A DNA stretch of 64,000 bases, taken from positions 37,522 through 101,521 of IMG/VR virus record IMGVR_UViG_3300024268_000035; one strand, given 5' to 3'. Below the pieces are notes generated by a model, which was not told the origin of the DNA, ran no database searches, and saw only the letters and a list, made by a program, of their open reading frames with translations. Positions 551-55,391 of the stretch are shown in pieces. The position numbers were made by a program, and so were the translations under genes. This stretch comes from a virus. Taxonomy: Duplodnaviria; Caudoviricetes. Numbering within the stretch: the first letter of the stretch is position 1; each line of letters opens with the position of its first letter.

Positions 551-2101
551 TTAGATATTCTTCAGAACCTCACCAATGGGAGCATAACGATCAGTGTTCA
601 GAGTTTCCAGCAGACATTCATAAGGATCAGTTTTTCCACTCATAACAAGTTTTACGATGTTTGTGCTGAATCCGCTGACAAGAGCAACGCCCATATCATT
701 TTCAATAACAGGGATTGTTGCTGTACGACTATTTACATTCCAGAATACAAGGCGGGGGAGCTTGTAACCGGCATTTTCATAACGCTGAGAAATAATCTCG
801 AACAGACGAGCGTTGGGACGATTACGATTCCATCTGTCAGAGGATCTGCCGCAAGTAGCACAGCTATCAAATTCCATGTCGGAGATGATAAGGATATTCT
901 GAGGAATATCTTCCTGTGCCATGTTGTTATGGACGGCTGTATCCAAAATCAGATCGAATACCGCTTCGATATTGGTGTTTGCAACTTCATTGTGTGCGAG
1001 AGCAATCTGAAGTTTGTCACGAAGGTTCTTGCCTCTGCTCAGATCTACCAATTTCGGAGATTCCGAGAAGGTAATGTAGTTGTTTTTGAACTGACCAGAA
1101 GATCTTTCGGCGAAATAGATTGCAAGTGCGTTGGCTACACTCAATGCGCTAACGCTGGATCCGCCAACGGTACTTGTCATACTTCCACTTCCATCAGCGA
1201 CAACGATAGTATTTCCGCAGCCTGCTACAGTATCGGGAAGGGAATCCCACATTGCTTCCAGTGCAGAATCAACGATACCCTTCACATTGTAGCTGTTCGA
1301 CATATACTTATGTACAATATCGTGCGGATACAGTGTTCCGGCGTTGATTTTTGTTTCACCCTTTTCCAGTCTGGAAAGGTAATTGCGGCGACGTTCTTCA
1401 TCGTTGCGAAGGAAGGCTGAATTGTAGATCAAGTTTGCACGGGAAGGAACAGTTTCATAAATGATTTCGTTCCAATGCTTTGCGGACATCTTCTTTTCCA
1501 CCACATTCAGCTTGGTACGCAGTCTGGAAAGAGCTTTGCGATAGTCGCGTTCTGTAACCCCCATATGCTTATAAATAAGCTTTGCATAACGCTTGGTTTC
1601 CTTAGAAGAGGCGTTTACAGAAGGAAGCCACTTTGCCAGAAGGGAAATGCTGCCATTCTTTTTAAGATTCTGAATATCCTGTGTAAGCTGAACGGAAACA
1701 AGGTCAAGTACGTTTATCTGAAGGTTGGTATCCAGCAGACACCACAGATCATCATAACGTCCATATTCAGGAATCAGGTTCAGAAGGGGGATGATGTATT
1801 CCGGATTGTGTTCAGCCATATTGGAAAGGATGATTCTGAACAAACGACGTTCACCAAGACCACCACGGATATCTCTTGCGAAAAACAGCCACTTCATTGC
1901 TGTCACCTTGTCTTCAAAGAAAGCCTTAGTGAATCGTTTGGCAATATCGTCCGGGGATGCGGAACGAAGAGATGCAACGGCGAAGTTCAGATCCAACAGT
2001 TCTTTACCAGTGGTACGATATCCCATAGCACCATTTTCGGTCATAGAGTAATTGTTATCTGCGAGCATGGTTTTCTTCATGTTTGAAACAAAGTTACTCA
2101 T
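551..2101 (-). CDS. DUF2828-type TROVE/Ro60-like protein with C-terminal vWA domain
   Basis: Motifs TENGA, ARDIRGGLGER, YGRYDDL, AKWLPS; MIDAS DGSGS; ISDMEFD; FWNV; strong AAGGAGG RBS. Confidence 0.85.
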   Translation of the reverse strand: MSNFVSNMKKTMLADNNYSMTENGAMGYRTTGKELLDLNFAVASLRSASPDDIAKRFTKAFFEDKVTAMKWLFFARDIRGGLGERRLFRIILSNMAEHNPEYIIPLLNLIPEYGRYDDLWCLLDTNLQINVLDLVSVQLTQDIQNLKKNGSISLLAKWLPSVNASSKETKRYAKLIYKHMGVTERDYRKALSRLRTKLNVVEKKMSAKHWNEIIYETVPSRANLIYNSAFLRNDEERRRNYLSRLEKGETKINAGTLYPHDIVHKYMSNSYNVKGIVDSALEAMWDSLPDTVAGCGNTIVVADGSGSMTSTVGGSSVSALSVANALAIYFAERSSGQFKNNYITFSESPKLVDLSRGKNLRDKLQIALAHNEVANTNIEAVFDLILDTAVHNNMAQEDIPQNILIISDMEFDSCATCGRSSDRWNRNRPNARLFEIISQRYENAGYKLPRLVFWNVNSRTATIPVIENDMGVALVSGFSTNIVKLVMSGKTDPYECLLETLNTDRYAPIGEVLKNI

Positions 2102-11773: not shown

Positions 11774-14700
11774 TTATGAAATATCCTGATTGCCCCAGCG
11801 GATGTGGAAGTTGCCGTTTTCATCCGCTTCACGGGACATGAGTACGGAAAGAAGATCGTAGTCAACACCAAACTTGTCGTAGATTTCATCCAAATCTGCG
11901 TCCTGACCACGCATGAACAGATTCAGTTTTTCCTTTGCGAGAACCATTTGCATCTGGTTGGACTCGATACTTCCAAGATAGGTAACAAAGTAGATATGCT
12001 TCTCGTTTGTGGAATTGTATCGGATAAAACGGTGATAAAACTGGCTCATCCGGGAATTGTTGTAGTGCAGTTCGGGGATGATTACGTTATCCACAAATTC
12101 AAAGTTTACACTGGACGGAAGGCTTTGCTGCGTACAGAGAAGAATTCCGTTCTTGCTTTCTTTCAGGGTTTTACGGAGCGCACGTCTCTTTGCAAGTGTG
12201 GTGGTAGAACCAGTGACGATAAACAGAGGGCGATCCGGCATAGTTTCCTTGATTGCCTGTGCATAGGCATCCACCACATTTTTATGACGCACACCGATTG
12301 CTACGATCTGAGTGTCCATAGACTGACAAAGTTCCAGTACGGTTTTTATTTTCTCTGGTGTTCCTCCTTGGTATTCCATAACGGTATTAGGAGCTGCACT
12401 GATTCTGAGAAGCAATGTAATCTGCTGAATCAAACGCATCATGGAATCCTTACGGGAGTTTCCGGTGGAAGCGAAGTAATGACTACGCATCGCATGGAAT
12501 TCGTTGATCGCTTTCTGATATACAGCGCGTTCCGCATCCGCAAATCGAACGGGAATCTGATGAATCTGCTTGATATTCTTGCCGGATACTTCTTCAAAAG
12601 TTCGAGTGATTACGAAACGTCCGAGAATCTGCTGAAGTTCTTCAGCGTTATAGATATCCTGTGTTTTCTGACCTACGCCGAATACAGTGATCCGTTCCGG
12701 CAAATGACTTGCTGAGAACAGGGCATATCCTGCCTTGTATGCGGGGATCGGTCTGCCGTAATGGGGATTGCCTTTACAGGACAGTCCGGCTTCCGGATTA
12801 TCCTTGGTGGCGCGTTCATAATGGTAAATGGTATCGCACCATGAAATCATATTCGCAGAGTTGTTATATGCAAGCTCCAACTGCGGCGCAAATTCTCCGA
12901 TGTTGTTTCTTGTGCTGGTTCCAGTCATAAGCAGTTTATACTTACATCTTCTGAAAGCGTTCAAAACTGCCTTAGCACGAACACTGGAAGGGTTGGACAT
13001 TTCATCACTTTCATCGAAGCACAGAGCGATTTTCTGTCCATGCTGTCTGACCCAGTTCTTGATCTGTTTGTGGTATGCGGACAGTTTATTCAGGGTAATA
13101 AGAACGAAGTCGCCCTGTTTGATTCTGTTCAGGTCATCCACTTTATCAATGACAACATAAGAAAGATCGTAGTTAGGCAGTACCACATCCCAGTTGTTCT
13201 TGATGGAAATAGCAGGGGAGACAACCCATGTACAAAAAGCGTTCTGCTTCTCCATCCGATACAGACCGGCGGCAATCCCGGCAAGTGTTTTACCGGAACC
13301 CTGTTCCCACTGCAAAAGCATATAGCGTTTCTGCAGTACAAGATTCAGGTCGTGTTTCTGGATGTCATTCAAACGAATTTCTTCTTCATTTTCCTTATCG
13401 TAAAGGGTGAATTTATCCAGCCATGCAGAGAGCTTGGGATCCTGTTCCATATCAAGAAGCTGCATCTGTTCAATCTGGTATTCTCTTTGACGGCGACGGA
13501 TCATTCTGGCATAATTCCCGAACGCAGAGGAATCCATTTCTTCGGAAACGATCTGATAGAAAGGTTTGATTTCTTTCATTTCATCTGTGAGCTGACGGGC
13601 TGCCTTGGGGCTGTATGCCTTATATCCGATGGAATCGTCGTGCTTTACCATCCGAATTATATCTTCGTACTTCTGCGGATGCTGTTTGCGGATTGTATTG
13701 CGGAGATATGCAAGCACCTTGGCTTCAGTAATGCGGACTCTGCACCATTCCTCATCGGACATATCATCCGGCTGTTTCTGGGTATAGAAACGATTTAGAT
13801 ATTCACAGCATTTGACATACTTTTCACGCAGGAGAGGGTGGGACTGGATGTGGTACAGATATTTCTTTACTTTATATGTAAAGTCATCGGCTGCGTTCTC
13901 GCTTCTTGCTATTTCCAACAGGATGTGCGAATGATTTTTGCGGAACTGTTCCTGTGCGGTATCCAGAAAGTTAGAACGAACAAACTGTCTGCCGGATTCA
14001 TCCAAACTAACAGTATCGTAGGTCTGAACGGAATAGTGGTTTGCATTCCATCCGTCCATTTCGCTGTTTTTCTGCCAGAACTGAACCTTGGTAGTATAAC
14101 CTGTCACGCCGAGAGAGGCGAACGTATTTTTGTCCAGTGAGAACTGACCGAGGAAACTGAAGTGCTTTTCCATTTCCTTAATCAGTCCGCCGTCAGAGAA
14201 GTCATCCGCAAGGAACGACTGGGGAACAACAAGAGCCATAATTCCCATAGGTTTCAAAAGCTCTGCCGCTTTCTGGCAGTAGTAAAGCTGGGACAGAATC
14301 TGTGCGCCATCCACCCACCAATACAGATTGAACGGAGGATTGCCAACAACGTAATCCAGCTTAATACCCGGAGTGTATGTACGGATGTCTCCACAGGTAA
14401 GGTTTGCTTTCGGATACAGATACTTCGCAACTTTATAGGCTTTTACATCCAACTCACAGCCGTACACATTGCTTTCCAAAGGAGCAAAGTTAAAGAATGT
14501 ACCCATTCCGCAGGTCAGGTCAGCCACGATTTCCGTGTTGTTCAGGGCAAGGCAATCCATGATAAATTCGCAGACTTTATGAGGGGTGAAAAACTGTCCG
14601 TTTTCGATCTCCTTCTTGGCTTCCGAATATGCGTGGTAGCTGTCGAAGTCACTGAACTTCAGACCGTGTAATCCGCCGTCACCGGTGTACGCATTGTAAA

Positions 14701-14821
14701 TATCTTCACAGGTGATCCCGGAAGATTCCGCCAAATCGTTGTCAATCAGGTACAGTATTTTATCGTTCAATCCCTGACGGCTTTCCTGCGGTATCGTTTG
14801 CTGTAAGTTTTTGTATTTCAT
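11774..14821 (-). CDS. N6-adenine DNA methyltransferase fused to an SNF2-like helicase
   Basis: GQFFTP, DLTCGMG, GNPPF; WEQGSGKT, FDESD, MTGT. Confidence 0.85.
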   Translation of the reverse strand: MKYKNLQQTIPQESRQGLNDKILYLIDNDLAESSGITCEDIYNAYTGDGGLHGLKFSDFDSYHAYSEAKKEIENGQFFTPHKVCEFIMDCLALNNTEIVADLTCGMGTFFNFAPLESNVYGCELDVKAYKVAKYLYPKANLTCGDIRTYTPGIKLDYVVGNPPFNLYWWVDGAQILSQLYYCQKAAELLKPMGIMALVVPQSFLADDFSDGGLIKEMEKHFSFLGQFSLDKNTFASLGVTGYTTKVQFWQKNSEMDGWNANHYSVQTYDTVSLDESGRQFVRSNFLDTAQEQFRKNHSHILLEIARSENAADDFTYKVKKYLYHIQSHPLLREKYVKCCEYLNRFYTQKQPDDMSDEEWCRVRITEAKVLAYLRNTIRKQHPQKYEDIIRMVKHDDSIGYKAYSPKAARQLTDEMKEIKPFYQIVSEEMDSSAFGNYARMIRRRQREYQIEQMQLLDMEQDPKLSAWLDKFTLYDKENEEEIRLNDIQKHDLNLVLQKRYMLLQWEQGSGKTLAGIAAGLYRMEKQNAFCTWVVSPAISIKNNWDVVLPNYDLSYVVIDKVDDLNRIKQGDFVLITLNKLSAYHKQIKNWVRQHGQKIALCFDESDEMSNPSSVRAKAVLNAFRRCKYKLLMTGTSTRNNIGEFAPQLELAYNNSANMISWCDTIYHYERATKDNPEAGLSCKGNPHYGRPIPAYKAGYALFSASHLPERITVFGVGQKTQDIYNAEELQQILGRFVITRTFEEVSGKNIKQIHQIPVRFADAERAVYQKAINEFHAMRSHYFASTGNSRKDSMMRLIQQITLLLRISAAPNTVMEYQGGTPEKIKTVLELCQSMDTQIVAIGVRHKNVVDAYAQAIKETMPDRPLFIVTGSTTTLAKRRALRKTLKESKNGILLCTQQSLPSSVNFEFVDNVIIPELHYNNSRMSQFYHRFIRYNSTNEKHIYFVTYLGSIESNQMQMVLAKEKLNLFMRGQDADLDEIYDKFGVDYDLLSVLMSREADENGNFHIRWGNQDIS

Positions 14822-31929: not shown

Positions 31930-31958
31930 TTGACAAACAACGTAGTTTATGGTATAAT
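31930..31958 (+). promoter_or_regulatory. sigma-A promoter for the right arm
   Basis: TTGACA-N17-TATAAT with extended TG. Confidence 0.85.
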
Positions 31959-32053: not shown

Positions 32054-32806
32054 ATGGGTAAAGTGTCCGAAGTTGTAACAAATTCAATCTCTTTAACTCC
32101 CGAAAACGCAGTAAAAAAAAGTAGACCTCAGAACTACAAGAAAGATGAAAGCCAGACTGTTTTTCCGATCAAGAAACATGATGAAATCATTGCTATCGCT
32201 AACTGGCTTCTTGAAAACAAAGGAAAGAAGTATGTCCTTGCATTTACTCTTGGTATCAATCTTGGGCTGAGAGCAAATGAACTCCTTGCCATTAAGATTA
32301 AGAGTGTATACAATCCTGATGGATCTGTAAGGTTTATTGATGACGTAGAAGATACTTCTGATGCTATCGAAATTTTACAGAGCAAAACCAGAAAATTCCG
32401 TAAGGTATTTCTTAATCAGGCTTGTAAGGATGCTCTTGAATGGTGCAATCCTGTAAGAGAATCCAATAGTGATGTAACTACTCCTTATCTATTTCCCAGT
32501 AGAGAAGGTGGATCCATTCAGGTTGGTACTTTCCGTAAGGTTCTCAAAGAAGCTGCACAGGCGTGTGGACTGAAGCAAAATGTAGGAACACATACTTGTA
32601 GAAAGACGTGGGGCTGGCATCAATATAAGTATAACTGTGATAATGCTAATATGGATATCACGCTTCTCCAGAGAGCATTCGGACATAGTTCTCCGGAAGT
32701 GACTCTCAGATATCTTGGTATTACAGATGAGGAAGACAAAGCACTGTATCATACCATGAATATTCATGTTGTTTCAGACAATGCTTTTGGAAACAAGGTT
32801 CACTGA
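32054..32806 (+). CDS. tyrosine recombinase
   Basis: GLRANEL, THTCRKT, FGHSS..VTLRY catalytic set. Confidence 0.9.
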   Translation: MGKVSEVVTNSISLTPENAVKKSRPQNYKKDESQTVFPIKKHDEIIAIANWLLENKGKKYVLAFTLGINLGLRANELLAIKIKSVYNPDGSVRFIDDVEDTSDAIEILQSKTRKFRKVFLNQACKDALEWCNPVRESNSDVTTPYLFPSREGGSIQVGTFRKVLKEAAQACGLKQNVGTHTCRKTWGWHQYKYNCDNANMDITLLQRAFGHSSPEVTLRYLGITDEEDKALYHTMNIHVVSDNAFGNKVH

Positions 32807-34539: not shown

Positions 34540-34782
34540 GTGCGTGTGGTGCTGATAAACAAATTACGGCGTAAACGAAAAATTTTGTGTCATGTAGACA
34601 CTGGCAACAGACAGTTATTCTATACCGATGGTATCAATCCGTGTGGATGTGGCTCGAATCTATTTCGTTATGAATACGACGGTGAAAATATCTACGGCGT
34701 GTGTAATTCATGTGATACGGACATTTATGCGCTGAAAGAAGAATACAAACAAGAATACCTTGAACGTGGCATATGGAAGTGA
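34540..34782 (+). CDS. hypothetical protein
   Basis: Operonic ORF. Confidence 0.55.
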   Translation: MRVVLINKLRRKRKILCHVDTGNRQLFYTDGINPCGCGSNLFRYEYDGENIYGVCNSCDTDIYALKEEYKQEYLERGIWK

Positions 34783-34834
34783 TGAAGTATGTTCGTTCTT
34801 CAATAAAAACATTATCAAATGGAGGAAAATTGGT

Positions 34835-35155
34835 ATGAAAAAGATGATGATCTCTCAGCCGATGGCTGGAAAGACGGAGCAGGAAATCGCGGAAACCAGA
34901 GAGAGGGCGATCCAGTTTGCAGAGGAAAACGGATACGAATTTGTGAATACTCTGTTTACAGACGAATGGTATTCCCGTGAATCTATGGAAAAGCGTGGAG
35001 TTGTTCAGATTCCTCTCTGTTTCCTTGCAAAGTCCCTCGAAAACATGAGTCTTTGCCATATTGCGTATTTCGGTAAGGGCTGGGAAAATGCTCGTGGCTG
35101 CCGTATTGAACATGAAGCGGCTGTCGCATATGGTCTTGAAGTTGTCTATGAGTAA
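34835..35155 (+). CDS. DUF4406-like protein (nucleoside deoxyribosyltransferase-like fold)
   Basis: ISQPMAG...GWENARGCRIEH. Confidence 0.65.
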   Translation: MKKMMISQPMAGKTEQEIAETRERAIQFAEENGYEFVNTLFTDEWYSRESMEKRGVVQIPLCFLAKSLENMSLCHIAYFGKGWENARGCRIEHEAAVAYGLEVVYE

Positions 35156-35165
35156 GGAGGATATT

Positions 35166-35708
35166 ATGGATAACAGAAAACTTCTCATCGTAGTGGATAT
35201 GCAGCGTGATTTTGTAGATGGTGCGCTCGGATCCGCAGAAGCGGCGGCTGTCGTTAAAAAGATCGCGGATAAAGTAAACGATACCGAAAAGGTAGTATTC
35301 ACATTCGACACTCACGAAGATAATTACATGGAAACGCAGGAGGGAAGAAATCTTCCGATTCCTCATTGTATTCGCGGGACTGACGGTCATCGCCTTGTAC
35401 CGGAACTTGAAATTTTCAAGGACAGATGCTATACGGCAGAGAAAAAGACCTTTGGATCTGTACAGCTCGGTTTGTTTGTTGCCGAGATGTTTGAGAAGGA
35501 TTTCATCGATGAAGTTGAGCTTGTAGGTGTCTGCACAGATGTGTGCGTGATCTCCAATGCAATGATAATCAAGGCATTTTGCCCGGAAATTCCGATCAAG
35601 GTTGATGCCTCCTGCTGTGCTGGTGTTACCGTTGAAAACCACATGAATGCTCTGAAAGCTATGCAGGCTTGTCAGATTGAAATTCTGAATATGGAGGAAA
35701 CCGTATGA
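35166..35708 (+). CDS. pncA: nicotinamidase (isochorismatase family)
   Basis: VVDMQRDF, DTH, PHC, KKTFG, GVCTDVCV. Confidence 0.85.
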   Translation: MDNRKLLIVVDMQRDFVDGALGSAEAAAVVKKIADKVNDTEKVVFTFDTHEDNYMETQEGRNLPIPHCIRGTDGHRLVPELEIFKDRCYTAEKKTFGSVQLGLFVAEMFEKDFIDEVELVGVCTDVCVISNAMIIKAFCPEIPIKVDASCCAGVTVENHMNALKAMQACQIEILNMEETV

Positions 35709-36511
35709 TTAAGGTAAATGGTGTGGAAATTTCGCCTGAGAAGTTTCCGGATGGAACGTATAAGCTGAAATTACAGCGTTTTGGAGAAGATCATTTCTGT
35801 GTCACATGGCTGTATGATGGGGAACATGAACTGCCCACCCTGATTTACATTGCGTCCCACTTGAGAAATTACGGATGCAGAGAGATGATTCTGTATATGC
35901 CGTACATTCCCAACGCTCGTATGGATCGTGTTAAGGATAAGAGTGAGGTATTTACTCTGAAATACTTCGCGGATATAATCAACGGTCTGTTTTTCGACAA
36001 GGTATTCGTGCTGGATCCACATTCCAATGTAGCTACGGCACTTATTGACAGGGTATATGTCGTTCAGCCTAAGGAGTATATTAAAAGAGCGATCCGCGAT
36101 ACTATGCAGAATGATCTGATGATGGTATATCCGGACGAAGGGGCGATGAAACGATATTCCGGTATGATTCGTGCGCCGTATCTGTTTGGCATCAAGAAGC
36201 GCGATTGGGAAACCGGCAATATTGAAGTGCTTTCGATTGTCGGCAATAAGCCAGATGATATGAAATCCGCTTTGATTTGCGACGATATCTGCAGCAGGGG
36301 CGGCACATTCTATTATACAGCAAAAGCGTTGCAGACGATGGGTTTTGAAAACATCTATTTGTATGTAACACACTGCGAAAACACGATTTTGTCAGGCGAT
36401 CTCATCGACAGCGGACTTTTGAAGGGAATCTTTACAACAAGTTCTATTTTCCGCAAGGAACATCCTTTGATTACAACATATTCTATGGAGGATTATATTT
36501 ATGGAGACTAA
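35705..36511 (+). CDS. PRPP-synthetase-like protein (candidate ADPR-PP synthetase)
   Basis: FPDG, PYIPNARMDR, DPHS, PDEGA, DDICSRGGTF. Confidence 0.85.
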   Translation: MIKVNGVEISPEKFPDGTYKLKLQRFGEDHFCVTWLYDGEHELPTLIYIASHLRNYGCREMILYMPYIPNARMDRVKDKSEVFTLKYFADIINGLFFDKVFVLDPHSNVATALIDRVYVVQPKEYIKRAIRDTMQNDLMMVYPDEGAMKRYSGMIRAPYLFGIKKRDWETGNIEVLSIVGNKPDDMKSALICDDICSRGGTFYYTAKALQTMGFENIYLYVTHCENTILSGDLIDSGLLKGIFTTSSIFRKEHPLITTYSMEDYIYGD

Positions 36512-37994
36512 TCCGCTTCTGCTTTTGGACTATTACAAAACGACACATCACGAACAATATCCGAAGGGGCTTACGAAATTGGTTTCGTATCTCACACCTC
36601 GCATGACGAGAATTCCCGGTCAGGACAAACTGGTGATGTTCAGTCTGCAAGCATTCTTGAAAACATATCTCGTTGAATATTTCAACAAGAACTTTTTCAA
36701 TAAAAGCTGCGACGAAGTTATACATGAATACTGGCGTGTACTCGACTATACACTCGGCGAGGATACGTATGACCTTAAAAAGATCATTGATTTGCACAAC
36801 CTCGGATATTTACCCCTTGAAATCAAGGCAATTCCGGAAGGAACCCGTGTTCCCGTAAAGGTTCCTATGATTGAAATCAGTAATACACATCCCGATTTTG
36901 CATGGCTCGTGAACACCATCGAATCGCTGATGTCCGCTGAATTGTGGCATCCAATGATTTCTGCCAATGTCGGTTATTGGTATCGTGAGATTGTAAACCG
37001 TGCCTACGACATTTCTGTGGATGACAATGTGCCGCGCAGTCGTGCGCTTGGCGATTTTTCCTTCCGTGGTCAGGAAAGTCTGCAGTCTGCCGTCAAGAGT
37101 AGTGCCGGTTTTTGCCTCTCCTTTTTGAACACCGCAACAGTTCCCACGATTCCTTATCTGGAAGAAATGTATAACTGCGATTGCAGAAAGGATGATGTAG
37201 CATACGGAGCTATTTCTACGGAGCATAGTGTAATGTGCAGTAATTACGCAATCGACGGAGATGAAATTTCATTTATCCGCCGTTTGCTTACTGAGATTTA
37301 TCCCAATAACAGTTTCTCTATGGTTTCTGACAGCTATGATTACTGGCATCTCGTTGACGAAATTCTTCCTCAGCTCAAAGAAGAGATTATGAATCATAAA
37401 GGGTGCCTGCTGATTCGCGGAGACAGCGGCGATCCCGTACAGATCGTAACGGAAACTGTATTCCACCTCTGGGATATTTTTGGCGGCACTATAAACAGCA
37501 AGGGGTTCAAAGTTCTTAATCCTCATGTAAAGGCAATTTATGGTGACTCTATCACGGTGAGCCGTTGTGCTGAAATTTATCGTGTGCTGATTGAAGCTGG
37601 ATTTGCCTGCAATAATGTTTCTCTTGGTGTTGGTAGTTTCTCTATGCAGTGTCTTGAGACAACGAATGAGAGGGATGAAACAGTTCTGAATCCGTACACA
37701 AGAGACACCTTTGGTATTGCGGTGAAAGCTACATATGGCGAAGTGAATGGGGTGGGATTTGAGATTTTCAAGAATCCGAAAACCGATACTGGCAAATTCA
37801 AAAAGAGTCAGAAGGGGATTTGCAGAGTGTATCACAATGCAGAGGGCGAAATCACATATGAAGACGGTCTTACCCCGGACACTGTTTCAGGGGAAAATCT
37901 GTTGATTACAGTATTCAAAAATGGCGATATTACCAGAGAGTATTCGTTGGCTGAAATCAGAGCGCGGCTTCATGATGAAAATGGAGGTTTCTGA
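36501..37994 (+). CDS. nicotinamide phosphoribosyltransferase-like protein (Nampt/NadV; candidate Namat)
   Basis: LDYYKTTH, DFSFRG, STEHSVM, SDSYD, IRGDSGDP, IYGDSI, KKSQKG. Confidence 0.85.
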   Translation: METNPLLLLDYYKTTHHEQYPKGLTKLVSYLTPRMTRIPGQDKLVMFSLQAFLKTYLVEYFNKNFFNKSCDEVIHEYWRVLDYTLGEDTYDLKKIIDLHNLGYLPLEIKAIPEGTRVPVKVPMIEISNTHPDFAWLVNTIESLMSAELWHPMISANVGYWYREIVNRAYDISVDDNVPRSRALGDFSFRGQESLQSAVKSSAGFCLSFLNTATVPTIPYLEEMYNCDCRKDDVAYGAISTEHSVMCSNYAIDGDEISFIRRLLTEIYPNNSFSMVSDSYDYWHLVDEILPQLKEEIMNHKGCLLIRGDSGDPVQIVTETVFHLWDIFGGTINSKGFKVLNPHVKAIYGDSITVSRCAEIYRVLIEAGFACNNVSLGVGSFSMQCLETTNERDETVLNPYTRDTFGIAVKATYGEVNGVGFEIFKNPKTDTGKFKKSQKGICRVYHNAEGEITYEDGLTPDTVSGENLLITVFKNGDITREYSLAEIRARLHDENGGF

Positions 37995-38761
37995 TGACAG
38001 TAATAAAAACGGAATTTGATGTCGAAAGAGTCAAGAATGAGTGTGTACAATGGATTCGAGACTACTTTGAAAAGAATGGTAAGGATTGTAATGCGGTTGT
38101 CGGGATCTCCGGTGGTAAAGATTCATCTGTTGTTGCAGCTCTGTGTGTAGAAGCTCTGGGACGTGACAGAGTTATCGGTGTTTTGATGCCTCAGGGTGAA
38201 CAATCTGATATCGAATACAGTTATAAGCTCGTCAATCATTTAGGTATTCGCAACTACGTGATCGATATTGCAATGCCGGTGTTTAATGTTTTGCAGAACA
38301 TGAGAAAGACCGGCATTGAACCAAGTGAACAGACAATAGTGAATCTTCCTGCAAGAATTCGTATGGCTACTTTATTTGCCGTATCTCAGAGCTGCAACGG
38401 ACGTGTTGCCAATACGTGCAATCTTTCTGAGGATTGGATCGGGTATTCTACTTTGTTTGGAGATAGCGTAGGACAATTTGCTCCTATCTCGCAGTTGACG
38501 GCAAGTGAAGTGGTTTTGCTTGGCAAAGCACTTGGTTTACCGGACGAGTTGATTTACAAGGCTCCTTCTGATGGTCTTACCGGAAAGACAGACGAGGAAA
38601 ACTTCGGATTTACATACGATGTGCTTGATCTGTATCTCAGAACCGGTTTCTGCTATGATGAAGAAATCAAAAAGAAGATTGATTCTAAACATCGTGCAAA
38701 CAAGTTCAAGCTGGAACCCATGCCGTTCTATGATCCGGGGATTATGAATTATGCGGCTTGA
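37994..38761 (+). CDS. nadE: NH3-dependent NAD+ synthetase
   Basis: GISGGKDS, ARIRM, NLSE..IGY.TLFGD, KAPSDGL..TDE. Confidence 0.9.
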   Translation: MTVIKTEFDVERVKNECVQWIRDYFEKNGKDCNAVVGISGGKDSSVVAALCVEALGRDRVIGVLMPQGEQSDIEYSYKLVNHLGIRNYVIDIAMPVFNVLQNMRKTGIEPSEQTIVNLPARIRMATLFAVSQSCNGRVANTCNLSEDWIGYSTLFGDSVGQFAPISQLTASEVVLLGKALGLPDELIYKAPSDGLTGKTDEENFGFTYDVLDLYLRTGFCYDEEIKKKIDSKHRANKFKLEPMPFYDPGIMNYAA

Positions 38762-39251
38762 GAATGTGAAGTATTTGAAACTTTGCGGAGAAGCGGTTGA
38801 GATGGTATTTAATCGTACCAAAACTCAATTCCGCTTCCCTGTAAGGGATATTGAACAACCACCATATGCTATTGGAGATATTATCGGTATCAAAGAGGCG
38901 TGGGCTAAGATTGAAGATGTTTACTTTTACAGAGTATCGGGTGTCCTTCCTAACTGGACAAATGAGACGTGGCATTCATCTGTGTGTATGCCGGAAGAAG
39001 CGGTACGGATTTTCTTGAAAGTAGAGAATGTAGAGGTACAGCATCTTAAAGATATTACAGTAGATGAGGTAGATAAGGAAGGTATATGGAAGTATGGTTC
39101 CATGTTCCCTATCCTGACATTTGCCAATGCTTGGGATAAATCACTATCTGCGAAAAAGAAAGATGTATATTGTTGGGATAAAAATCCGCTTGTATGGGTT
39201 GTAACATTCCGAAGAATGGATGAGCAGGAGTGTTCTGAGGAATATGAATGA
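38751..39251 (+). CDS. ASCH-like phage protein
   Basis: KTQFR, PY..GD.I..KEAW, WHSSVCMP, NPLVWVVTF. Confidence 0.65.
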   Translation: MRLENVKYLKLCGEAVEMVFNRTKTQFRFPVRDIEQPPYAIGDIIGIKEAWAKIEDVYFYRVSGVLPNWTNETWHSSVCMPEEAVRIFLKVENVEVQHLKDITVDEVDKEGIWKYGSMFPILTFANAWDKSLSAKKKDVYCWDKNPLVWVVTFRRMDEQECSEEYE

Positions 39252-39583
39252 ACGAAATCAGAGAAACAGCGATTGACCACATGGCTGGAGAAGACTACGC
39301 AACAATATGTAGTAGTGAAAAGAAATGGATTAACTATATACAGAAGTTGAAAGCTAAAAATCCTAAAGAAGTTGAAATCAAATGTGTAAATTCAGATGGG
39401 AGTGTAGTAGCCAAGTTCCCAGCAGCGTGGATAAGAATCAAGCCGAAGAAAAAAGTGAACTTAACTCCGGCACAGATTGAAGCATCAAAAGAGCGGCTTG
39501 AGGCAGGAAGACTGAAAAGATTAAAAATGATTGGAGATGGGAGTGCTTATGTAGAAAAACTGAAAGGAAGCATAACCGAATGA
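39248..39583 (+). CDS. hypothetical protein
   Basis: Operonic ORF. Confidence 0.7.
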   Translation: MNEIRETAIDHMAGEDYATICSSEKKWINYIQKLKAKNPKEVEIKCVNSDGSVVAKFPAAWIRIKPKKKVNLTPAQIEASKERLEAGRLKRLKMIGDGSAYVEKLKGSITE

Positions 39584-39768
39584 ACGAAGAGAAGAAGACG
39601 TGTAAGGGGTGTATTTGGGTAGATCAATGCGAATCAGATAAGAGATGTGAAGATTATACCCCGGTAGATGTTGATGAAGATGATGTTAAATATTACAATC
39701 AGATAATCAAAGAAAATACAGAAGAATATGAAGATCTTGTTAAGGAACAGGATGAGACAAAAGAATAA
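39580..39768 (+). CDS. hypothetical protein
   Basis: Operonic ORF. Confidence 0.6.
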   Translation: MNEEKKTCKGCIWVDQCESDKRCEDYTPVDVDEDDVKYYNQIIKENTEEYEDLVKEQDETKE

Positions 39769-39816
39769 TAGCCTTGGCGGGGAATCCCGCCTTGGTATAT
39801 TCAAAGGAGCGTAATA

Positions 39817-40374
39817 ATGAATGGATTTAACAAAGAGGAATGGTTGCAAAAAACCGAAGAATACTTAATCTATATTGATCGTCACAAGAAAAACATTGCT
39901 GAGGCGTGGCGTGAGTTACGTACAGCATTGAAGAATATTGGTTTGGTCAAATGGGATGTGATCCAGTGCGAAATGGAAGCTCGTATTGAGTATCATGACG
40001 ACAGTAAATTGGACGAGGGAGAGTTTTTACCGTACCGTCAGAAGTTCTATCCAGTTTCCGGAGAAATTGTCTCAGAGGATTCATTTGCTGCTGCGTGTCA
40101 GCGTCACTATTTTATAAACGATCATCACTGGCAGCACTGGATTGATAAAGAGGGAAATTTTGAAGAGTGTTGCGATGTAAGAACGAAGATGTGTGCGTTT
40201 ATTGAAATGATTTGCGACTGGCAGGCGATGAGTTATGAGTTTGGTGGTTCTGCTCCGCAGTATTTCAGAGAGAATAAGGATAAGATCCGTATTGATCCCA
40301 ACTGGCTTCCGTTTGTTGAAGAAATTTTGGATTGCCTTGAACAGCATTTATCTCAGAAAGAGAGCTGCGTATGA
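39817..40374 (+). CDS. DUF5662-like HD-domain protein
   Basis: HDDSK, H...NDHHWQHW, EMICDW. Confidence 0.7.
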   Translation: MNGFNKEEWLQKTEEYLIYIDRHKKNIAEAWRELRTALKNIGLVKWDVIQCEMEARIEYHDDSKLDEGEFLPYRQKFYPVSGEIVSEDSFAAACQRHYFINDHHWQHWIDKEGNFEECCDVRTKMCAFIEMICDWQAMSYEFGGSAPQYFRENKDKIRIDPNWLPFVEEILDCLEQHLSQKESCV

Positions 40375-40731: not shown

Positions 40732-43509
40732 ATAAGTCTTGATAAGCAAATACATATCTACAGTTTCGACACAAGTGCATTTTACACGGATGAAGAACAC
40801 GAACTGGAGATTAAGATAAATACACTGTGTACTGAGAAGCTCATTTTGAAATCACAGCGCAGTATTTTGTCTGGATATTATTACGGAGGGGTTCCGTATG
40901 AAAAAGCAATTTCGCAATATAGAGCATTATTGAAAATGCGGCGTGATGAACCGGTAGAATTGGACGACCCTGAACGCATTAAGGATATCAATGATGAAGT
41001 AAAAGCGTTGAATGCCCAAATCAAGTCCCACAAAGAGCGTTTGGTAACTCTCTTATCAGAGCATAATGGAACGCGAATCCTTAGAAGTGAGTATGTTATA
41101 AGCAAGAACATTATTTCTGTGTTTGAATCAATGCTGACTCGCACACTTGGAATGCAGGCAGGTATTCTGTATGATGATTTTATGGTTATCCGAACATATT
41201 ATTTCGATGTTGTAAGAGACATGATTTTGAATGGGTATATGTATAACGGCGAGAAATATGTGTGCTTTACTGCTTCTGCCGGACAGATTCGGACTAAAAA
41301 AACAGTTTTCATAAAAGAGAGCGTATGGAAACAGTATCAAAAAACGCTGATGTGTGGGCTTACTGTGGACAGCATCAATTCATATGGCGGTATCAACATC
41401 AATAAATATCTTGCTTATCTTGCCTTGTGCAACAGCGCAACTGATCCGTGGCTTGATTTCGATATACATAAATCTATCGTTGTAGATGATATGGAAACAA
41501 GTGTAAGTGGTGTTGTTGATTTTATCGATCATCATACATATCAGATTGAACGTAAAACGATGGAGATTCCAATCAAGCATACGGATGGATGCGGAATGGT
41601 ACTGCCGACAAGATGTCCTAAAAATACAATGGTACGCTTACCTTGGGTTAAAGGTTTGTTGGCGGTTTTTCCATTCGACAAGTTTATCAGGGAAGCAGAC
41701 AAACGCGAACCTGAAATCCGTCATGGGGTAGTAAAAGATATATATGGAAAAGAACATGATATTCTCGAAGAAGGAATTGAAATTATCTTCACCAAAAGTC
41801 AGTTCAAAATGTACAAGTATTATAAGAGTTGGGAGGAATACACCGACTTTTATCTCAAATATGGGTGTACAGCGGGTAAATGTAATGAGGAAGAAGATTT
41901 TCTTCCTGACGCTAAACTGAATTATCAGATGCTTCAAACCCTTACGGACATCACTGACGAGGAACTGGAAAAACTTGCTGCGCGTTCTGTAGATAAGATT
42001 GCTCGGATTGCTTCTGATCGTACCACAATGCTTGAAGTATTTGGTGCGTCTACACAGTACAAGAATAAAAATGCCTTTCAGGAGTGTTTGCAGATTTATC
42101 CTGAATTGCTGTCTGACCCATATACAAAAGAGATGTTGAAGCAGATTAAGAAAAATCTTGTTCAGGAAGCGAAGTCAGCGAAGATTGACATTTCTGCAAA
42201 ATATATGTTTTTGATTCCTGATTTATATGCTTTTTGTGAATGGCTGTTTTTAGGAATCAAAGATCCTGTTGGACTTCTGGCAGATAATGAAGTGTCTTGT
42301 CACTTATATCGAAACGCATATAAGCTCGATTGTCTGCGTTCTCCGCATTTGTACAGGGAACACGCTGTACGACAGAATGTAATAAAACCTGCAACTCGTA
42401 AGTGGTTTACTCCGAATGCCATTTATACAAGCTGTCATGATTTGATTTCAAAGATACTGCAATTCGATTGTGATGGAGATAAGAGTTTGGTGTGTGCGGA
42501 CGAGCTGATTGTTGAGATCGCAGAACGTAATATGAAGGATATTGTTCCGCTGTATTATGAGATGGCAAATGCAGGTGTTGTGCAAATTACAGATGAAGAG
42601 ATTTTCAAAGGACTTCGCGCTGCGTGGACAGGAGGCAACATCGGTGTTATCAGTAATGATATCACAAAAATCTGGAACAGCAAAGATGTTGATCTTAACT
42701 CTATTAAGATATTATGTATGGAAAACAATTTCTGTATAGATTATGCCAAGACCTTATATAAGCCCACTCGTCCGGCTGAGATCGACAGTAAACTTTCTCG
42801 TATTACTGGTGAAAAGGCTCCACACTTTTTTACGTATGCAAAAAAGAAGGAGATTGGACGTGTACAGAAACTGAACAACAGTGTTGTAAATCGGCTTGAG
42901 ACAATCATTCCGAATAAACGAATGTCTTTCTCTGCCAAAAATATCGGAGCTTTCCGATATCAATATATGCTTTCAAAACCATCTGAATGTATCGACATGG
43001 TACAGGATGTAGTAAATCTGTATAATGAGGTTGAGAAAAAGTACCGTTATTCTATTAGCTTCTATGATGATGTAACGAACTTCGCGTATATCAGAGATAT
43101 GATACTCAAAGAATTTGCATCACTGGGATACGACATGAATGATGTGTGTGATACGCTTGTAAAATATCTGTTTGATATGAAACAGAGTAAGCGGAAGAAT
43201 GTGTTTTGGATGTGTTTCGGAGATATAGTATATCAGAATCTTGCGAACAATTTGCCGGAAGGATCCATCCAGTGCAGGAAATGCGGTGAACGGTTTATTC
43301 CTACTTCTCCACAAAAACAGATTTGCGATAAGTGTGCCACATACAAGCCTGCAGGCAAAAAGATAAAGCGTTGTGCTGACTGCGGCAAAGAATTTGAAGT
43401 TGCAGGGTATGTAAAGAATAAAAAGCGTTGTGATGAGTGTCAGAACGCACATGATAAGGAACTGAGAGCCGAACGAAATTCAAGATACTACACAAATCAC
43501 AAAAATTAA
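40732..43509 (+). CDS. YonO-like single-subunit RNA polymerase
   Basis: TASAGQIR, TDGCG, RLPWVKG, LRSPH, catalytic QFDCDGD; C-terminal zinc ribbons; frame extends upstream to ATA 40732 behind AAGGAGG. Confidence 0.85.
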   Translation: MSLDKQIHIYSFDTSAFYTDEEHELEIKINTLCTEKLILKSQRSILSGYYYGGVPYEKAISQYRALLKMRRDEPVELDDPERIKDINDEVKALNAQIKSHKERLVTLLSEHNGTRILRSEYVISKNIISVFESMLTRTLGMQAGILYDDFMVIRTYYFDVVRDMILNGYMYNGEKYVCFTASAGQIRTKKTVFIKESVWKQYQKTLMCGLTVDSINSYGGININKYLAYLALCNSATDPWLDFDIHKSIVVDDMETSVSGVVDFIDHHTYQIERKTMEIPIKHTDGCGMVLPTRCPKNTMVRLPWVKGLLAVFPFDKFIREADKREPEIRHGVVKDIYGKEHDILEEGIEIIFTKSQFKMYKYYKSWEEYTDFYLKYGCTAGKCNEEEDFLPDAKLNYQMLQTLTDITDEELEKLAARSVDKIARIASDRTTMLEVFGASTQYKNKNAFQECLQIYPELLSDPYTKEMLKQIKKNLVQEAKSAKIDISAKYMFLIPDLYAFCEWLFLGIKDPVGLLADNEVSCHLYRNAYKLDCLRSPHLYREHAVRQNVIKPATRKWFTPNAIYTSCHDLISKILQFDCDGDKSLVCADELIVEIAERNMKDIVPLYYEMANAGVVQITDEEIFKGLRAAWTGGNIGVISNDITKIWNSKDVDLNSIKILCMENNFCIDYAKTLYKPTRPAEIDSKLSRITGEKAPHFFTYAKKKEIGRVQKLNNSVVNRLETIIPNKRMSFSAKNIGAFRYQYMLSKPSECIDMVQDVVNLYNEVEKKYRYSISFYDDVTNFAYIRDMILKEFASLGYDMNDVCDTLVKYLFDMKQSKRKNVFWMCFGDIVYQNLANNLPEGSIQCRKCGERFIPTSPQKQICDKCATYKPAGKKIKRCADCGKEFEVAGYVKNKKRCDECQNAHDKELRAERNSRYYTNHKN

Positions 43510-51909: not shown

Positions 51910-53706
51910 ATGGACTACAGCAAGTTAATGGATGAACGACAAGCTAAACTGCATAAAAATTTTCCATCTACACACTATTTAAGCAGACCGGAGTATTTAC
52001 AACGATTACTGCTGTGGATTACTTTTTATAAGCGAAATCCCTCCAGATTTGTTGAACATTATTTTGGCATTACACTCCATCTTTATCAGCACATAATTTT
52101 GTATTTGATGGAGTTTGTGCCCAGCTTTTGTATCGTTGCGGCTCGTTCTGCGGCAAAATCATTTTTGATTGCAGTATTTGCCTGCAAAGAAGCAATATTA
52201 AAGCCGGGAGCAAAAATTGTTGTCGCTTCTGCTACGAAGAAACAGGCGAGGTTGATTGTATCAGAAAAAATAAAAAAAGAACTGATGCCGAAGTCAAAAT
52301 TGCTTGAGGCGGAGATAGAAGGTTTTAAGGATAACCAAAATGAAATTGAAGTAACATTCAGGAATGGAAGTTCAATTATCGTTGTCGCTGCAAACGAGAA
52401 TGCTCGTGGTTATCGTGCTACCGTAATGATTTACGAAGAGTTTAGAATGATTGTTAAGAATATCATTGACAGCGTTCTTTCTCCTTTCTTGTATATCAGA
52501 CAGGCAGAGTTTCTGAATCACGAAGAATATGCCGGAATGTATGAGGAACCGAAAGAGGTATATATTAGTTCCGCATGGTATCAGAACCACTGGATGTGGA
52601 AACTCATTCGTGATTTTGTAAAAGATATGCTCACAGACGGATCCTCTTGTGTTATTGCGATGGATTATAGCATATCGTTAAAGCACAATATCAAAACGAG
52701 AAACTTCTTAATTAAAGAGCGAAAGAAACTTGACCCTATGTCTTGGGCGATTGAATATGAGAATCATATGATCGCTGAAAACGCAAGGTCATTTTTTAAT
52801 TATGAACAACTCAACAGAAACAGACGATTAAAGAGGGCTTTCTATCCGAGAAGAAATGACGAAGTTTTGTTAAAACAGAAAAACAAGTACGATATTCCGA
52901 AACAGGTTGGAGAGGTACGGGTTCTTTCATGTGATATTGCTATGGAAGGTGGTAAAGATACTGACAACTCTATCTTTACCTGTATCAGACTTCTTCCCGA
53001 AAGTCAAGAATACAAAGTCATGGATTCAACGGGTGAACACATCGAGATCAAAGGTGGATATCGCAGACAGATTGTTTACATGGAAGCGGTACACGGCGGA
53101 GAAACAACAAAGCAGGCTATTCGTATCAAGCAGTTATATACAGATTTTAATGCGGATTATTGCGTGCTTGACGGACGAAACGCCGGTATCTCCGTATATG
53201 ATATGCTGGCGAAAGTGTTATTTGATGAAGAACGCAATGTGGAATACAAACCTTGGAAATGTATGAACGATGACAAGGTTGCAAATCGTATCCAGATTGC
53301 CGGTGCGATAGAAAATGTATATATTATTAAAGCACAGCTTGAAACAAATAGCTTTATTGCGGAATCCATGCGTAATGCGTTGAATTCCGGAATGATTGAT
53401 TTACTTATTAGTAACACAGAAGCAGTCGATGAGATCACTAATTTTATACCTGAATATGCGATTTCTGATGTAGACACACAGTTATTCTTTGAGCGTCCGT
53501 ATTTGGAAACCGTTGCACTTATCAATGAAATGATTAACCTTGAATATGAGCGCGGCGAACAGACCGGACTTATCAAAATTATAAACAACAATGACCGTAA
53601 AGACCGATATACCTCGGTTTCTTACGGTAATTATTTTGCTCAGATGTTGGAGCATGACTTATTGTCGGACAGCTCAGAATACGAGTATGTCCCGTTATTT
53701 AACTAA
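51910..53706 (+). CDS. terminase large subunit
   Basis: AARSAAKS Walker A variant, ARGYRA, YEEFR, SCDIA nuclease motif, RKDRYTS. Confidence 0.85.
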   Translation: MDYSKLMDERQAKLHKNFPSTHYLSRPEYLQRLLLWITFYKRNPSRFVEHYFGITLHLYQHIILYLMEFVPSFCIVAARSAAKSFLIAVFACKEAILKPGAKIVVASATKKQARLIVSEKIKKELMPKSKLLEAEIEGFKDNQNEIEVTFRNGSSIIVVAANENARGYRATVMIYEEFRMIVKNIIDSVLSPFLYIRQAEFLNHEEYAGMYEEPKEVYISSAWYQNHWMWKLIRDFVKDMLTDGSSCVIAMDYSISLKHNIKTRNFLIKERKKLDPMSWAIEYENHMIAENARSFFNYEQLNRNRRLKRAFYPRRNDEVLLKQKNKYDIPKQVGEVRVLSCDIAMEGGKDTDNSIFTCIRLLPESQEYKVMDSTGEHIEIKGGYRRQIVYMEAVHGGETTKQAIRIKQLYTDFNADYCVLDGRNAGISVYDMLAKVLFDEERNVEYKPWKCMNDDKVANRIQIAGAIENVYIIKAQLETNSFIAESMRNALNSGMIDLLISNTEAVDEITNFIPEYAISDVDTQLFFERPYLETVALINEMINLEYERGEQTGLIKIINNNDRKDRYTSVSYGNYFAQMLEHDLLSDSSEYEYVPLFN

Positions 53707-53723: not shown

Positions 53724-55391
53724 TTGTCAGATAGTAGAAAATGGTATCAGTTCTGGAAAAGAGAATCTGATGTATTTGAAGAAAATTCTATTGATATGGT
53801 TCCAGAAGAACCAGTTCATGAATTCAATACAGATATCGGAACCGCATATATCAAGATGTTACAGGCATCAGGTGAAATGCCATACAGCATTAAGGAAATC
53901 CGGAGCTTTACGAAGAATCCGCTTTCACATATTACAGAAATCCGAAGAATGGCACATTGGGCGTATCACACTAATGGTGTTGTGGCAAGTGCTATTGATT
54001 ATATGAAGTCAATGCACACATTGGATGGCGTTGTTGTATGTAAGGCAAGAAAATTTGATGGAAGTAGACCGAAAAACTATCGTATGAATAAATCAAAAAT
54101 GGAAGCGACATTAAATACGATTCGATATAAGCAGATAATTCGAGACGGTATTTTTAAGGATGCTAATGATGGTATGTATGTTGCTTATTTTGAAACGGTT
54201 TATTCAACACCCGATATGCGTACAGTTTTGACAGATTATGATATCCAAAATATTACCGAAATCAATGCGATTGGTATGAATGCTACTGTAATTCCACTTC
54301 CTGTTGGTTATGTGAAGATAGTTGGTAGACGCAATAACAGCTATCAAATAGCTTTTGACTTGCGTTATTTTGATAATTATCCGGACGATGAGGCACGTAA
54401 ACAAAAGCTTGCTGGATTTCCAAGAGAAATTCAAGAAGGTTGGATCAAGTATTCAAACAGCGATACTTCTGCTCCGTGGCTTATCTTAAACAACGATAAA
54501 ACAATTGTTACAAAGATAAAGAGTGATATTTCGGATCCATATGGGATTCCATTTGCGATAGCTGCACTTGATGATATTAGCTATGCTCAATATTTTGTTG
54601 ATACAAAACGAAATGTGCTGGATTCGGTAAATAATCAAATTGTTTATGAAACTTTTCCGGAAGGTAAAGAAAAAGGTACTTCTGCTTTGACTGAAAAGCA
54701 ACAGAGACAGCAGCATGATATGGTCAAAAATGCGTTAGCGAGCAAGTCCAGAAACAGTAGCGGAACATCGTTCTTCTCGTTAGCGTCAGGTACAAAATTG
54801 GACAGCATATCATTAGATGTTTCTTTGTTAGATGAGAAAAACGAAAATTCTATTGTAGATTCAGTCAACAAAGATATAGGTGTAGCGGCAAGTGCTTTAG
54901 ATGGCAGTAGTGCTGGTAACTATTCAAGTGCAACTCTTAATCTGGAACTTGTATCAGCTAACGTCTATACATGGATCGAAGATATTGTTGATGAGTTAAA
55001 TAAGTGCATAAATAAGAACATCATTAACGATCCGTCGTGTAGAGTTGAATTTTATGTGCTTCCAATTACTATGGTCAACAGGGATAAAATAGTTGACTAT
55101 ATGTCTGCGCTGTATGCTCGTGGTAAAGGAAGCCTTTATGCGTGGATTGCTTCCACAGGATTTAATCCGGATAATTACATTGCGCTCATGGAATATGAAT
55201 TGCAGGAAGATTTTGAAAATCGTTATCCTGTTCATAGAACCTCATTTACTATAACTGGAAAAGACGATCCGGAACACGAGGATCATAATCAGGGCAAAGG
55301 CGGAAGACCACCAACGGATAGTAATAATCCTTCATCTATTCAACAAAAAACTAATGGTGGGAATAATATGCCGAAGCCATCATCCGGGTAA
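53724..55391 (+). CDS. portal protein
   Basis: 555 aa following terminase; PYGIP motif; synteny. Confidence 0.75.
   Translation: MSDSRKWYQFWKRESDVFEENSIDMVPEEPVHEFNTDIGTAYIKMLQASGEMPYSIKEIRSFTKNPLSHITEIRRMAHWAYHTNGVVASAIDYMKSMHTLDGVVVCKARKFDGSRPKNYRMNKSKMEATLNTIRYKQIIRDGIFKDANDGMYVAYFETVYSTPDMRTVLTDYDIQNITEINAIGMNATVIPLPVGYVKIVGRRNNSYQIAFDLRYFDNYPDDEARKQKLAGFPREIQEGWIKYSNSDTSAPWLILNNDKTIVTKIKSDISDPYGIPFAIAALDDISYAQYFVDTKRNVLDSVNNQIVYETFPEGKEKGTSALTEKQQRQQHDMVKNALASKSRNSSGTSFFSLASGTKLDSISLDVSLLDEKNENSIVDSVNKDIGVAASALDGSSAGNYSSATLNLELVSANVYTWIEDIVDELNKCINKNIINDPSCRVEFYVLPITMVNRDKIVDYMSALYARGKGSLYAWIASTGFNPDNYIALMEYELQEDFENRYPVHRTSFTITGKDDPEHEDHNQGKGGRPPTDSNNPSSIQQKTNGGNNMPKPSSG

Follow-up and report, generated by a model that had tools for sequence, protein, structure and literature searches.

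The stretch of DNA analysed here (64,000 nucleotides, referred to below as the window) makes up the right-hand part of IMGVR_UViG_3300024268_000035, an IMG/VR virus record of 101,521 bp, which is a tailed phage from animal-gut samples with a CheckV completeness estimate of 76%. At positions 35166-38761 its plus strand carries four overlapping genes of NAD+ metabolism, just as the initial annotation had described them: pncA (35166-35708, 180 amino acids; PF00857, E 1.5e-23), a gene similar to prs and to adps (35705-36511, 268 amino acids, protein P0002; phrog_619, E 1e-67), a Nampt/Namat-like transferase gene (36501-37994, 497 amino acids, protein P0001; PF04095 and PF18127; phrog_448, E 1e-157), and nadE (37994-38761, 255 amino acids; PF02540, E 3.2e-52; TIGR00552, 177 bits against a cut-off of 63.65). 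We suggest, with a probability of about 0.6 estimated from the sequence comparisons presented below, that these genes represent a nicotinate-type, or “deamidated”, form of NARP1, a system by which phages reconstitute NAD+.

The successive genes overlap by 4, 11, and 1 nt, and a GGAGG-type ribosome-binding site is located 6-9 nt 5' of every ATG; because of both features the four genes are translationally coupled. The longest open reading frame (ORF) of pncA begins with TTG at 35061, while the alternative ATG at 35166 is the better start because it is preceded by AAGGAGG, lies after the stop codon of the preceding ORF (35155), and the Pfam domain begins just downstream of it.

The first and the last proteins of the module may be assigned to known enzyme types. 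The closest solved relatives of PncA are nicotinamidases/pyrazinamidases (M. tuberculosis PncA, 3pl1; P. horikoshii, 1ilw), and its catalytic residues Asp11, Lys93, and Cys127 do not vary in any of the 80 module homologues, nor do the metal ligands Asp48, His50, and His67. The product is therefore predicted to be a metal-dependent nicotinamidase of the isochorismatase family. The closest solved relatives of NadE are NH3-dependent NAD synthetases (2e18, 115 bits; 3fiu, 98 bits), the SGGxDS loop of the ATP pyrophosphatase is kept as GISGGKDSS, and a glutaminase domain was not found in this single-domain protein, which is predicted to be an NH3-dependent NAD synthetase.

The structure 3fiu is that of the Francisella tularensis enzyme, which prefers nicotinate mononucleotide (NaMN), and the phage NadE is short. 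These features would suit a route in which the transferase forms NaMN, NadE acts as a nicotinamide mononucleotide (NMN) synthetase converting NaMN into NMN, and a host NMN adenylyltransferase produces NAD+. We consider this route very improbable, since the best solved relative (2e18) is a different NAD synthetase, the related bacterial operons use a two-domain glutamine-dependent NadE, and the NMN adenylyltransferase which it needs is absent from the phage record. In addition, all the evidence for the use of ADP-ribose pyrophosphate (ADPR-PP) given below also counts against it.

NAD+ depletion is among the commonest anti-phage strategies of bacteria, and three phage pathways restoring NAD+ are known. 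One of them, NARP1, consists of the enzymes Adps and Namat and was described for Bacillus phage SPbetaL1, Vibrio phage ICP1, Escherichia phage Bas63, and Paenibacillus foliorum (10.1101/2024.02.11.579819; PMC12774641; PMC13586617); the SPbetaL1 and ICP1 pairs have both been assayed (10.1101/2024.02.11.579819; PMC13586617). Neither PncA nor NadE is mentioned in the original NARP1 preprint (10.1101/2024.02.11.579819).

The central question is whether the two middle enzymes belong to the NARP1 type or to ordinary NAD+ salvage. In the latter case, the Prs-like enzyme would produce phosphoribosyl pyrophosphate (PRPP), the transferase would make NaMN, the essential NadD of the host would convert it into deamido-NAD (nicotinate adenine dinucleotide, NaAD), and the phage NadE would finish the synthesis, with ADP-ribose being no substrate at all. 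We regard this Preiss-Handler-type salvage as the main competing explanation, unlikely on balance but the one to be taken most seriously.

The Prs-like protein itself argues against PRPP synthesis. P0002 shows 37% identity (149 bits) to the SPbetaL1 Adps and 31% (103 bits) to the ICP1 Adps, compared with at most 67 bits for the canonical PRPP synthetases in the PDB, and its scores do not reach the cut-off of either Prs domain of Pfam or of any Prs model in NCBIfam. In its alignment with the two Adps enzymes, the residues Arg87, His121, Asp161, Lys185, Asp212, and Asp213 (ICP1 numbering) are invariant, and its PP loop reads DDICSRGGTFYY. With 268 amino acids it is as short as the Adps enzymes, which are PRPS-like proteins without the C-terminal alpha11-alpha12 of PRPS (PMC13586617). 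In the Prs-like tree the module proteins are sister (support 99) to the SPbetaL1-type Adps, the ICP1 Adps branches outside, and canonical PRPS sits on a very long branch. Phe92 of the ICP1 Adps, which contacts adenine, was considered as a diagnostic residue and rejected, as it is not kept even in the assayed SPbetaL1 Adps.

For the transferase, the closest solved relative is the SPbetaL1 Namat (crystals 9w5x/9w5w; 421 bits, 43% identity), compared with 178 bits for human Nampt. The AlphaFold2 model of P0001 has a mean confidence score (pLDDT) of 95.5, and its top Foldseek matches are the Namat crystals (TM score 0.91-0.93, root-mean-square deviation 1.6 A); this model informs on the fold and does not settle the choice of substrate. 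The Nampt-like core (Namat Phe189, Arg192, Arg306, Asp308, Gly360, Asp361, Gly390, Ser391, and Arg399) is fully kept in P0001, which retains Phe186, Arg189, Arg306, Asp308, Gly348, Asp349, Gly378, Ser379, and Thr400-Arg401-Asp402, and the catalytic His242 is invariant.

The NCBIfam match of P0001 is NF006629, “nicotinate phosphoribosyltransferase” (453 bits), a name which would speak for ordinary salvage. P0001 has the NAMPT_N domain (PF18127), and NAPRTase_N (PF17767) was not found in it, so it is not of the PncB type. It also differs from Nampt/NadV of the NARP2 type by Ala212 in place of the Asp219 pocket, by Phe380 in place of the GGG helix, and by having no PF01467 partner. Many representatives of the Namat family (P0006, P0022, P0044, and others) are 550-900 amino acids long and match in two stretches with a break near residue 317-320, one of which has an HNH/AP2 segment; an intein, the insertion of a homing endonuclease, or read-through in gene calling could account for this pattern. 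When the long representatives were inspected for a transferase fused to PncA, Adps, or NadE, the extensions proved to be an HNH endonuclease read-through or unannotated and were uninformative.

The adenine side of the active site resembles that of Namat. The clamp pair is kept in P0001 as Arg37 (Namat Arg40) and Phe380 (Namat Phe392). Across the 55 clusters of its clade, which is defined below, the Arg40 column holds R in 46 and K in 3, and the 392 column holds F in 40 and Y in 11. Two true Nampts, those of Vibrio phage D484 (a KVP40-like phage) and Klebsiella phage KP15, have Asp215 together with Gly392, and the retention of Arg40/Phe392 in the module proteins is thus at odds with the salvage explanation. 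In the SPbetaL1 Namat, the double substitution R40A/F392G abolished the ADPR-PP-dependent NAD+ synthesis, and the PRPP activity was kept (PMC12774641).

The base pocket is where P0001 departs from Namat. Ala212 of P0001 stands at the position of the SPbetaL1 Namat Asp215 (human Nampt Asp219), GTDT being changed to NTAT, and in addition Asn210 replaces Namat Gly213 and Ser239 replaces Namat Ala242. In the crystal structure, Namat Asp215 is hydrogen-bonded to the amide of nicotinamide (PMC12774641). Asp219 of human Nampt is described as defining the nicotinamide specificity, and D219S is listed as switching the substrate affinity (PMC7096376; table 2 of PMC4919578, citing Khan 2006). One subclade of the relatives of P0001 has precisely Ser in this column, as in the human D219S.

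To place these changes in the family context, we used three sequence sets: the 80 viral loci closest to P0001, the 52 closest to the SPbetaL1 Namat, and the best 150 cluster representatives in a library that comprises 1.84 billion proteins. Among the best cluster representatives, the Asp215 column is occupied by Asp in 95, by Ala in 35, by Ser in 19, by Glu in 2, and by Val in 1. An “Ala/Ser” clade, all the sequences of which have Ala, Ser, or Val, comprises at least 55 clusters (50% identity) of the 150 closest representatives. When 468 alignment columns were ranked without bias, the best separators between the Asp-type and Ala/Ser sequences were D215 to A/S, A242 to S, H187, I240, G213 to K/N, S239, and V304. 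All the top-ranked columns coincide with, or adjoin, the residues which the Namat crystal paper names as contacting nicotinamide (PMC12774641), and the ribose-phosphate residues together with the clamp residues Arg40, Phe392, Thr398, Arg399, and Asp400 are unchanged. The remodelling is therefore confined to the base pocket.

The pocket change is linked to the gene content of the loci. Among the 136 viral loci, none of the 38 of the Asp/Glu type has PncA or NadE within 5 kb, while 91 of the 98 loci of the Ala/Ser type have both genes, six have one, and a single locus has neither. The gene order varies, being pncA-adps-namat-nadE for the window and adps..namat..nadE-pncA for a large group of gut phages of 140-150 kb, and at other loci pncA lies several kb downstream. 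The code-15 gut phage Phass-1 (33% identity) has pncA-prs-namat-x-nadE and Ala in the Asp215 column. In Phass-1 (L001, 5784-6203, minus strand) and in a related metagenome contig (L234, 2399-2818, plus strand), the ORF between the Namat-like gene and nadE encodes an unannotated protein of 139 amino acids.

In the Namat tree rooted with the true Nampts (those of Vibrio phage D484 and NadV of Klebsiella phage KP15), the Ala/Ser clade (support 100) and the SPbetaL1-type Namats are sister groups (95-97), the ICP1 Namat branches outside of them, and the topology matches that of the Prs-like tree. Hence the comparison with Adps and Namat proposed in the initial annotation places the transferase and the Prs-like protein each within the clade that the validated SPbetaL1 and ICP1 enzymes span, and not with Prs or Nampt, which is difficult to reconcile with ordinary salvage. 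Because the assayed enzymes bracket the module proteins, parsimony points to ADP-ribose and ADPR-PP as the substrates used ancestrally.

In both FastTree and IQ-TREE, a single branch (support 100) separates all the Ala/Ser sequences from the rest. We therefore rejected the treatment of the association between this column and PncA/NadE as many independent co-occurrences. It is the persistence of the linkage that counts, over at least 55 clusters, several gene orders, and both phages and bacteria. Ala and Ser interchange within the clade, and no reversion to Asp is seen among the 55 clusters.

This pattern bears on a further possibility, namely that the canonical NARP1 chemistry is kept, the transferase using nicotinamide and ADPR-PP despite the loss of Asp, with PncA and NadE being auxiliary (for example, removing excess nicotinamide or boosting the deamidated synthesis of the host). 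Such an arrangement would fit the strong family resemblance to Namat, yet we find it quite improbable. The D215A substitution reduced the activity of the SPbetaL1 Namat about 8-fold (PMC12774641), and D219A is listed as causing a loss of activity in human Nampt (PMC4919578). Moreover, PncA would consume the substrate of the transferase itself, and the three most discriminating pocket changes (D215A/S, A242S, and G213N/K) occur together, being linked to PncA/NadE in every lineage seen with no return to Asp.

The initial annotation had also noted that no NMN/NaMN adenylyltransferase is recognisable in the window, and this observation extends to the rest of the record: PF01467, the family of the NadD, NadM, and NadR adenylyltransferases, has no match in all the 101,521 bp (76% complete), nor do NUDIX and PnuC. 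In five relatives of 100% completeness PF01467 was found in none, and among the records of 50 further relatives it was found in seven (in 5 of the 32 which are at least 90% complete); thus, 32 of the 37 relatives of at least 90% completeness do not have it. Six of the matches were scanned: two are unrelated (CoaD and a sugar-phosphate nucleotidyltransferase), three are NadD/NadM-like, and one is weakly NMNAT-like. Two variants can be considered as hybrid versions of the module: in L066/L229 a NadM-like NMN adenylyltransferase gene (1459-2046, plus strand) directly follows nadE and pncA is absent, and in L077 nadE is absent and a PF01467 gene lies within the locus. Most module-bearing phages are thus devoid of an adenylyltransferase, and a mononucleotide branch exists in some.

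The same operon occurs in bacteria. A search over one genome per prokaryote species gave 80 loci with 59-71% identity, mostly from Lachnospiraceae, Ruminococcus, and Oscillospiraceae. All 80 have Ala at the critical position, and 62 have all four genes in the order of the window. In an isolate of Pseudoruminococcus massiliensis, pncA-adps-namat-nadE-nrtR is located among ordinary chromosomal genes. The bacterial operon encodes a two-domain glutamine-dependent NadE of 648 amino acids followed by NrtR (L143, 7482-10315, plus strand), as compared with the phage NadE of 240-260 amino acids and the NH3 type. Of the 80 bacterial loci, 58 have an NrtR-like gene next to them, as against 1 of 133 viral loci. 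The phage module was probably captured from gut Clostridia, in which the operon is chromosomal, and it looks like a host operon without its regulator which uses a short NH3-type NadE.

Five operon-bearing bacteria were inspected for other genes of NAD+ synthesis: canonical PncB is encoded elsewhere in four of them and canonical Prs in all five. The operon enzymes are therefore extra copies, and not the sole nicotinate phosphoribosyltransferase or PRPP synthetase of the cell, a redundancy which ordinary salvage would hardly explain. It is ADP-ribose that most effectively dislodges NrtR from DNA (PMC2330246). The adjacency of NrtR was rejected as a proof that ADP-ribose is a substrate of the operon enzymes, since NrtR also governs the classical pncA-pncB operons, and it lends mild support.

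Several facts weigh against the nicotinate-type NARP1 reading, and some of them would favour the synthesis of NaMN from PRPP. Firstly, the clamp helix motif of P0001 is GSFSMQC followed by a 14-residue insert at about residues 385-398 and YTRD (25 residues in total), so that position 7 is Cys and Tyr396 is lost. P0001 belongs to a crown group in which Tyr396 is lost and 6-14 residues are inserted after GSFSMQC, 14 of them in the window, where the insert is modelled by AlphaFold2 as an ordered beta-hairpin. The insert and the loss of Tyr396 make the use of ADPR-PP less certain for P0001 than for the basal lineages. Secondly, the SPbetaL1 Namat can still form NMN with PRPP in vitro, and the PRPP activity is retained by enzymes of this family (PMC12774641), which makes the use of PRPP by P0001 plausible. 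Thirdly, the PDB entries 6ta0 and 6ta2 represent the wild-type human NAMPT with nicotinic acid and with NaMN, and the Asp is therefore not an absolute gate. Fourthly, the single bipartition in the trees means that the association with PncA/NadE is one evolutionary event. Fifthly, a NadD- or NadM-like gene is present in about 4 of the 55 relatives, in one case immediately behind nadE and in another approximately 3 kb away; since NadD is present in every host and always available, the absence of an adenylyltransferase from the phage argues only weakly. Sixthly, NrtR controls ordinary pncA-pncB(-nadD-nadE) operons as well (PMC2330246), and a survey of gut jumbo phages puts NAMPT, pncA, and nadE under the labels of ordinary salvage (PMC11662467). 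Finally, the proposed route costs one ATP more than NARP1.

P0001 departs from the strict consensus of the Namat clamp motif, while 10 of the 52 clusters of the Ala/Ser clade, all of them basal lineages, keep the canonical 11-residue motif GSYTYQYxTRD (e.g., GSYTYQYNTRD). The full clamp in these members is hardly expected for enzymes of ordinary salvage. Four basal loci (Phass-1, P0020, P0040, and P0116) have NadE in four of four cases, PncA in three of four, and an NrtR-like gene in one.

Taken together, the data are best explained by the following scenario for the nicotinate-type NARP1 module. A NADase defence of the host would split NAD+ into ADP-ribose and nicotinamide. PncA would convert nicotinamide into nicotinate and NH3, and the Adps-like enzyme would convert ADP-ribose and ATP into ADPR-PP and AMP. 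The Namat-like enzyme, having lost the amide-binding Asp, would directly join nicotinate and ADPR-PP into NaAD with the release of pyrophosphate, and NadE would use ATP and NH3 to convert NaAD into NAD+, so that no mononucleotide adenylyltransferase would be required. The initial annotation had outlined this very sequence from nicotinamide through nicotinate and NaAD to NAD+, and it now gains support from the pocket changes linked to PncA/NadE, the nesting of both enzymes, the kept clamp pair, and the redundancy in bacteria. All the catalytic activities, above all the formation of NaAD from nicotinate and ADPR-PP, are predicted from sequence, and the counter-defence role is suggested by analogy with NARP1.

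A little less firmly, we favour a wider view in which the Ala/Ser clade as a whole catalyses an undescribed reaction, nicotinate + ADPR-PP to NaAD. It would constitute a further pathway consisting of PncA, Adps, a “nicotinate ADP-ribose transferase”, and NadE, which may serve for NrtR-controlled recycling of ADP-ribose in gut Clostridia and may have been repeatedly captured by phages for counter-defence. Our literature search found no paper describing the four-gene module or joining NARP1 with a nicotinamidase, and among the papers listed for ADPR-PP together with nicotinic acid none, as judged by title, is on a NaAD-forming reaction. If this view is true, it would add a fourth phage NAD+ pathway and a new reaction, in which ADPR-PP and nicotinate directly yield deamido-NAD, and would explain the large “Nampt” clade without the nicotinamide-selecting Asp. 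The pathway would then be native to the chromosomes of gut Clostridia, with the recycling of ADP-ribose to NAD+ being a part of normal bacterial NAD homeostasis and not only a viral trait, and the current annotations as nicotinamide/nicotinate phosphoribosyltransferase and ribose-phosphate pyrophosphokinase would have to be corrected.

The surroundings of the module were considered for additional components. The ORF at 34760-35155 on the plus strand (DUF4406/nucleoside 2-deoxyribosyltransferase-like; phrog_355, E 5e-20), which ends 11 nt before pncA, was rejected as a core-module gene because no related locus has a counterpart of it. The 166-amino-acid ORF at 38751-39251 on the same strand (phrog_874, function unassigned), the first 11 nt of which coincide with the end of nadE, was rejected as well; only the closest relatives (L003, L004, and L056) retain it behind nadE, and it may represent a fifth operon gene specific to this lineage.

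A short tyrosine integrase (250 amino acids) is encoded at 32054-32806 on the plus strand. Just 5' of it, at 31930-31958, is a perfect sigma-70 consensus promoter (TTGACA, 17 nt, TATAAT, with TG; 12/12), and this site is the switch point of GC skew and gene orientation. The NAD module lies approximately 3 kb inside the rightward gene block beginning there, and from this position it may be expressed early. The record also encodes an exonuclease, the large terminase (51910-53706), the portal (53724-55391), and, on the minus strand, a helicase of 1015 amino acids (11774-14821; phrog_24008), the N-terminal part of which also matches methyltransferase and DarB-like antirestriction families. The 887-amino-acid protein encoded at 40846-43509 (plus strand) matches the Pfam RdRP family (PF05183, E 8.7e-16; phrog_8308), a fold which some phages have in their single-subunit RNA polymerases (YonO-like, crAss-like).

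A megablast comparison of the cluster with GenBank phages gave no match, its relatives there being detected at the protein level only. Near-identical DNA occurs in animal feces and gut metagenomes and in one compost metagenome, from approximately 15 studies. A 5.3-kb contig from a metatranscriptome library covers 34648-39948 with about 97% identity, which was rejected as evidence of expression because DNA carry-over into the library is possible.

Comparison with the known systems outlines the place of the module. It shares with the Preiss-Handler salvage (PncA, PncB, NadD, and NadE) the start with PncA and the end with NadE through nicotinate and NaAD, but differs from it in having neither a PncB-family enzyme nor a phage NadD, and in its Prs-like partner being of the Adps type. 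NARP2 (Nampt and a bifunctional NMNAT/Nudix protein, Vibrio phage KVP40 type) and NARP3 (PnuC and NadR; PMC13464706) are similarly phage-borne means of NAD+ restoration after depletion; however, they need an adenylyltransferase and amidated intermediates (NMN), while the record studied here is devoid of PF01467, NUDIX, and PnuC. The NrtR-regulated prs-nadV operons of Rodionov et al. (2008) likewise combine a dedicated second Prs paralogue and a Nampt-family gene under an ADP-ribose-responsive repressor, but are without PncA and NadE and were read as forming NMN from PRPP and nicotinamide (PMC2330246); the phage modules have dropped NrtR and use the short NH3-type NadE. The closest system is NARP1, which the module resembles in the adjacent Prs-like and Nampt-like genes (with an 11-nt overlap in the window), the catalytic core, Arg40/Phe392, the fold, and the lack of a need for an adenylyltransferase. 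It differs from NARP1 in Ala at Asp215, the changed Gly213 and Ala242, and the 14-residue clamp insert, as well as in the nicotinamidase and NAD synthetase being fixed parts of the module and in the predicted product of the transferase, which is NaAD and not NAD+. Given the absence of two defining Namat features, the Asp and the strict clamp motif, the module is best considered as a variant of the NARP1 kind and not as its member.

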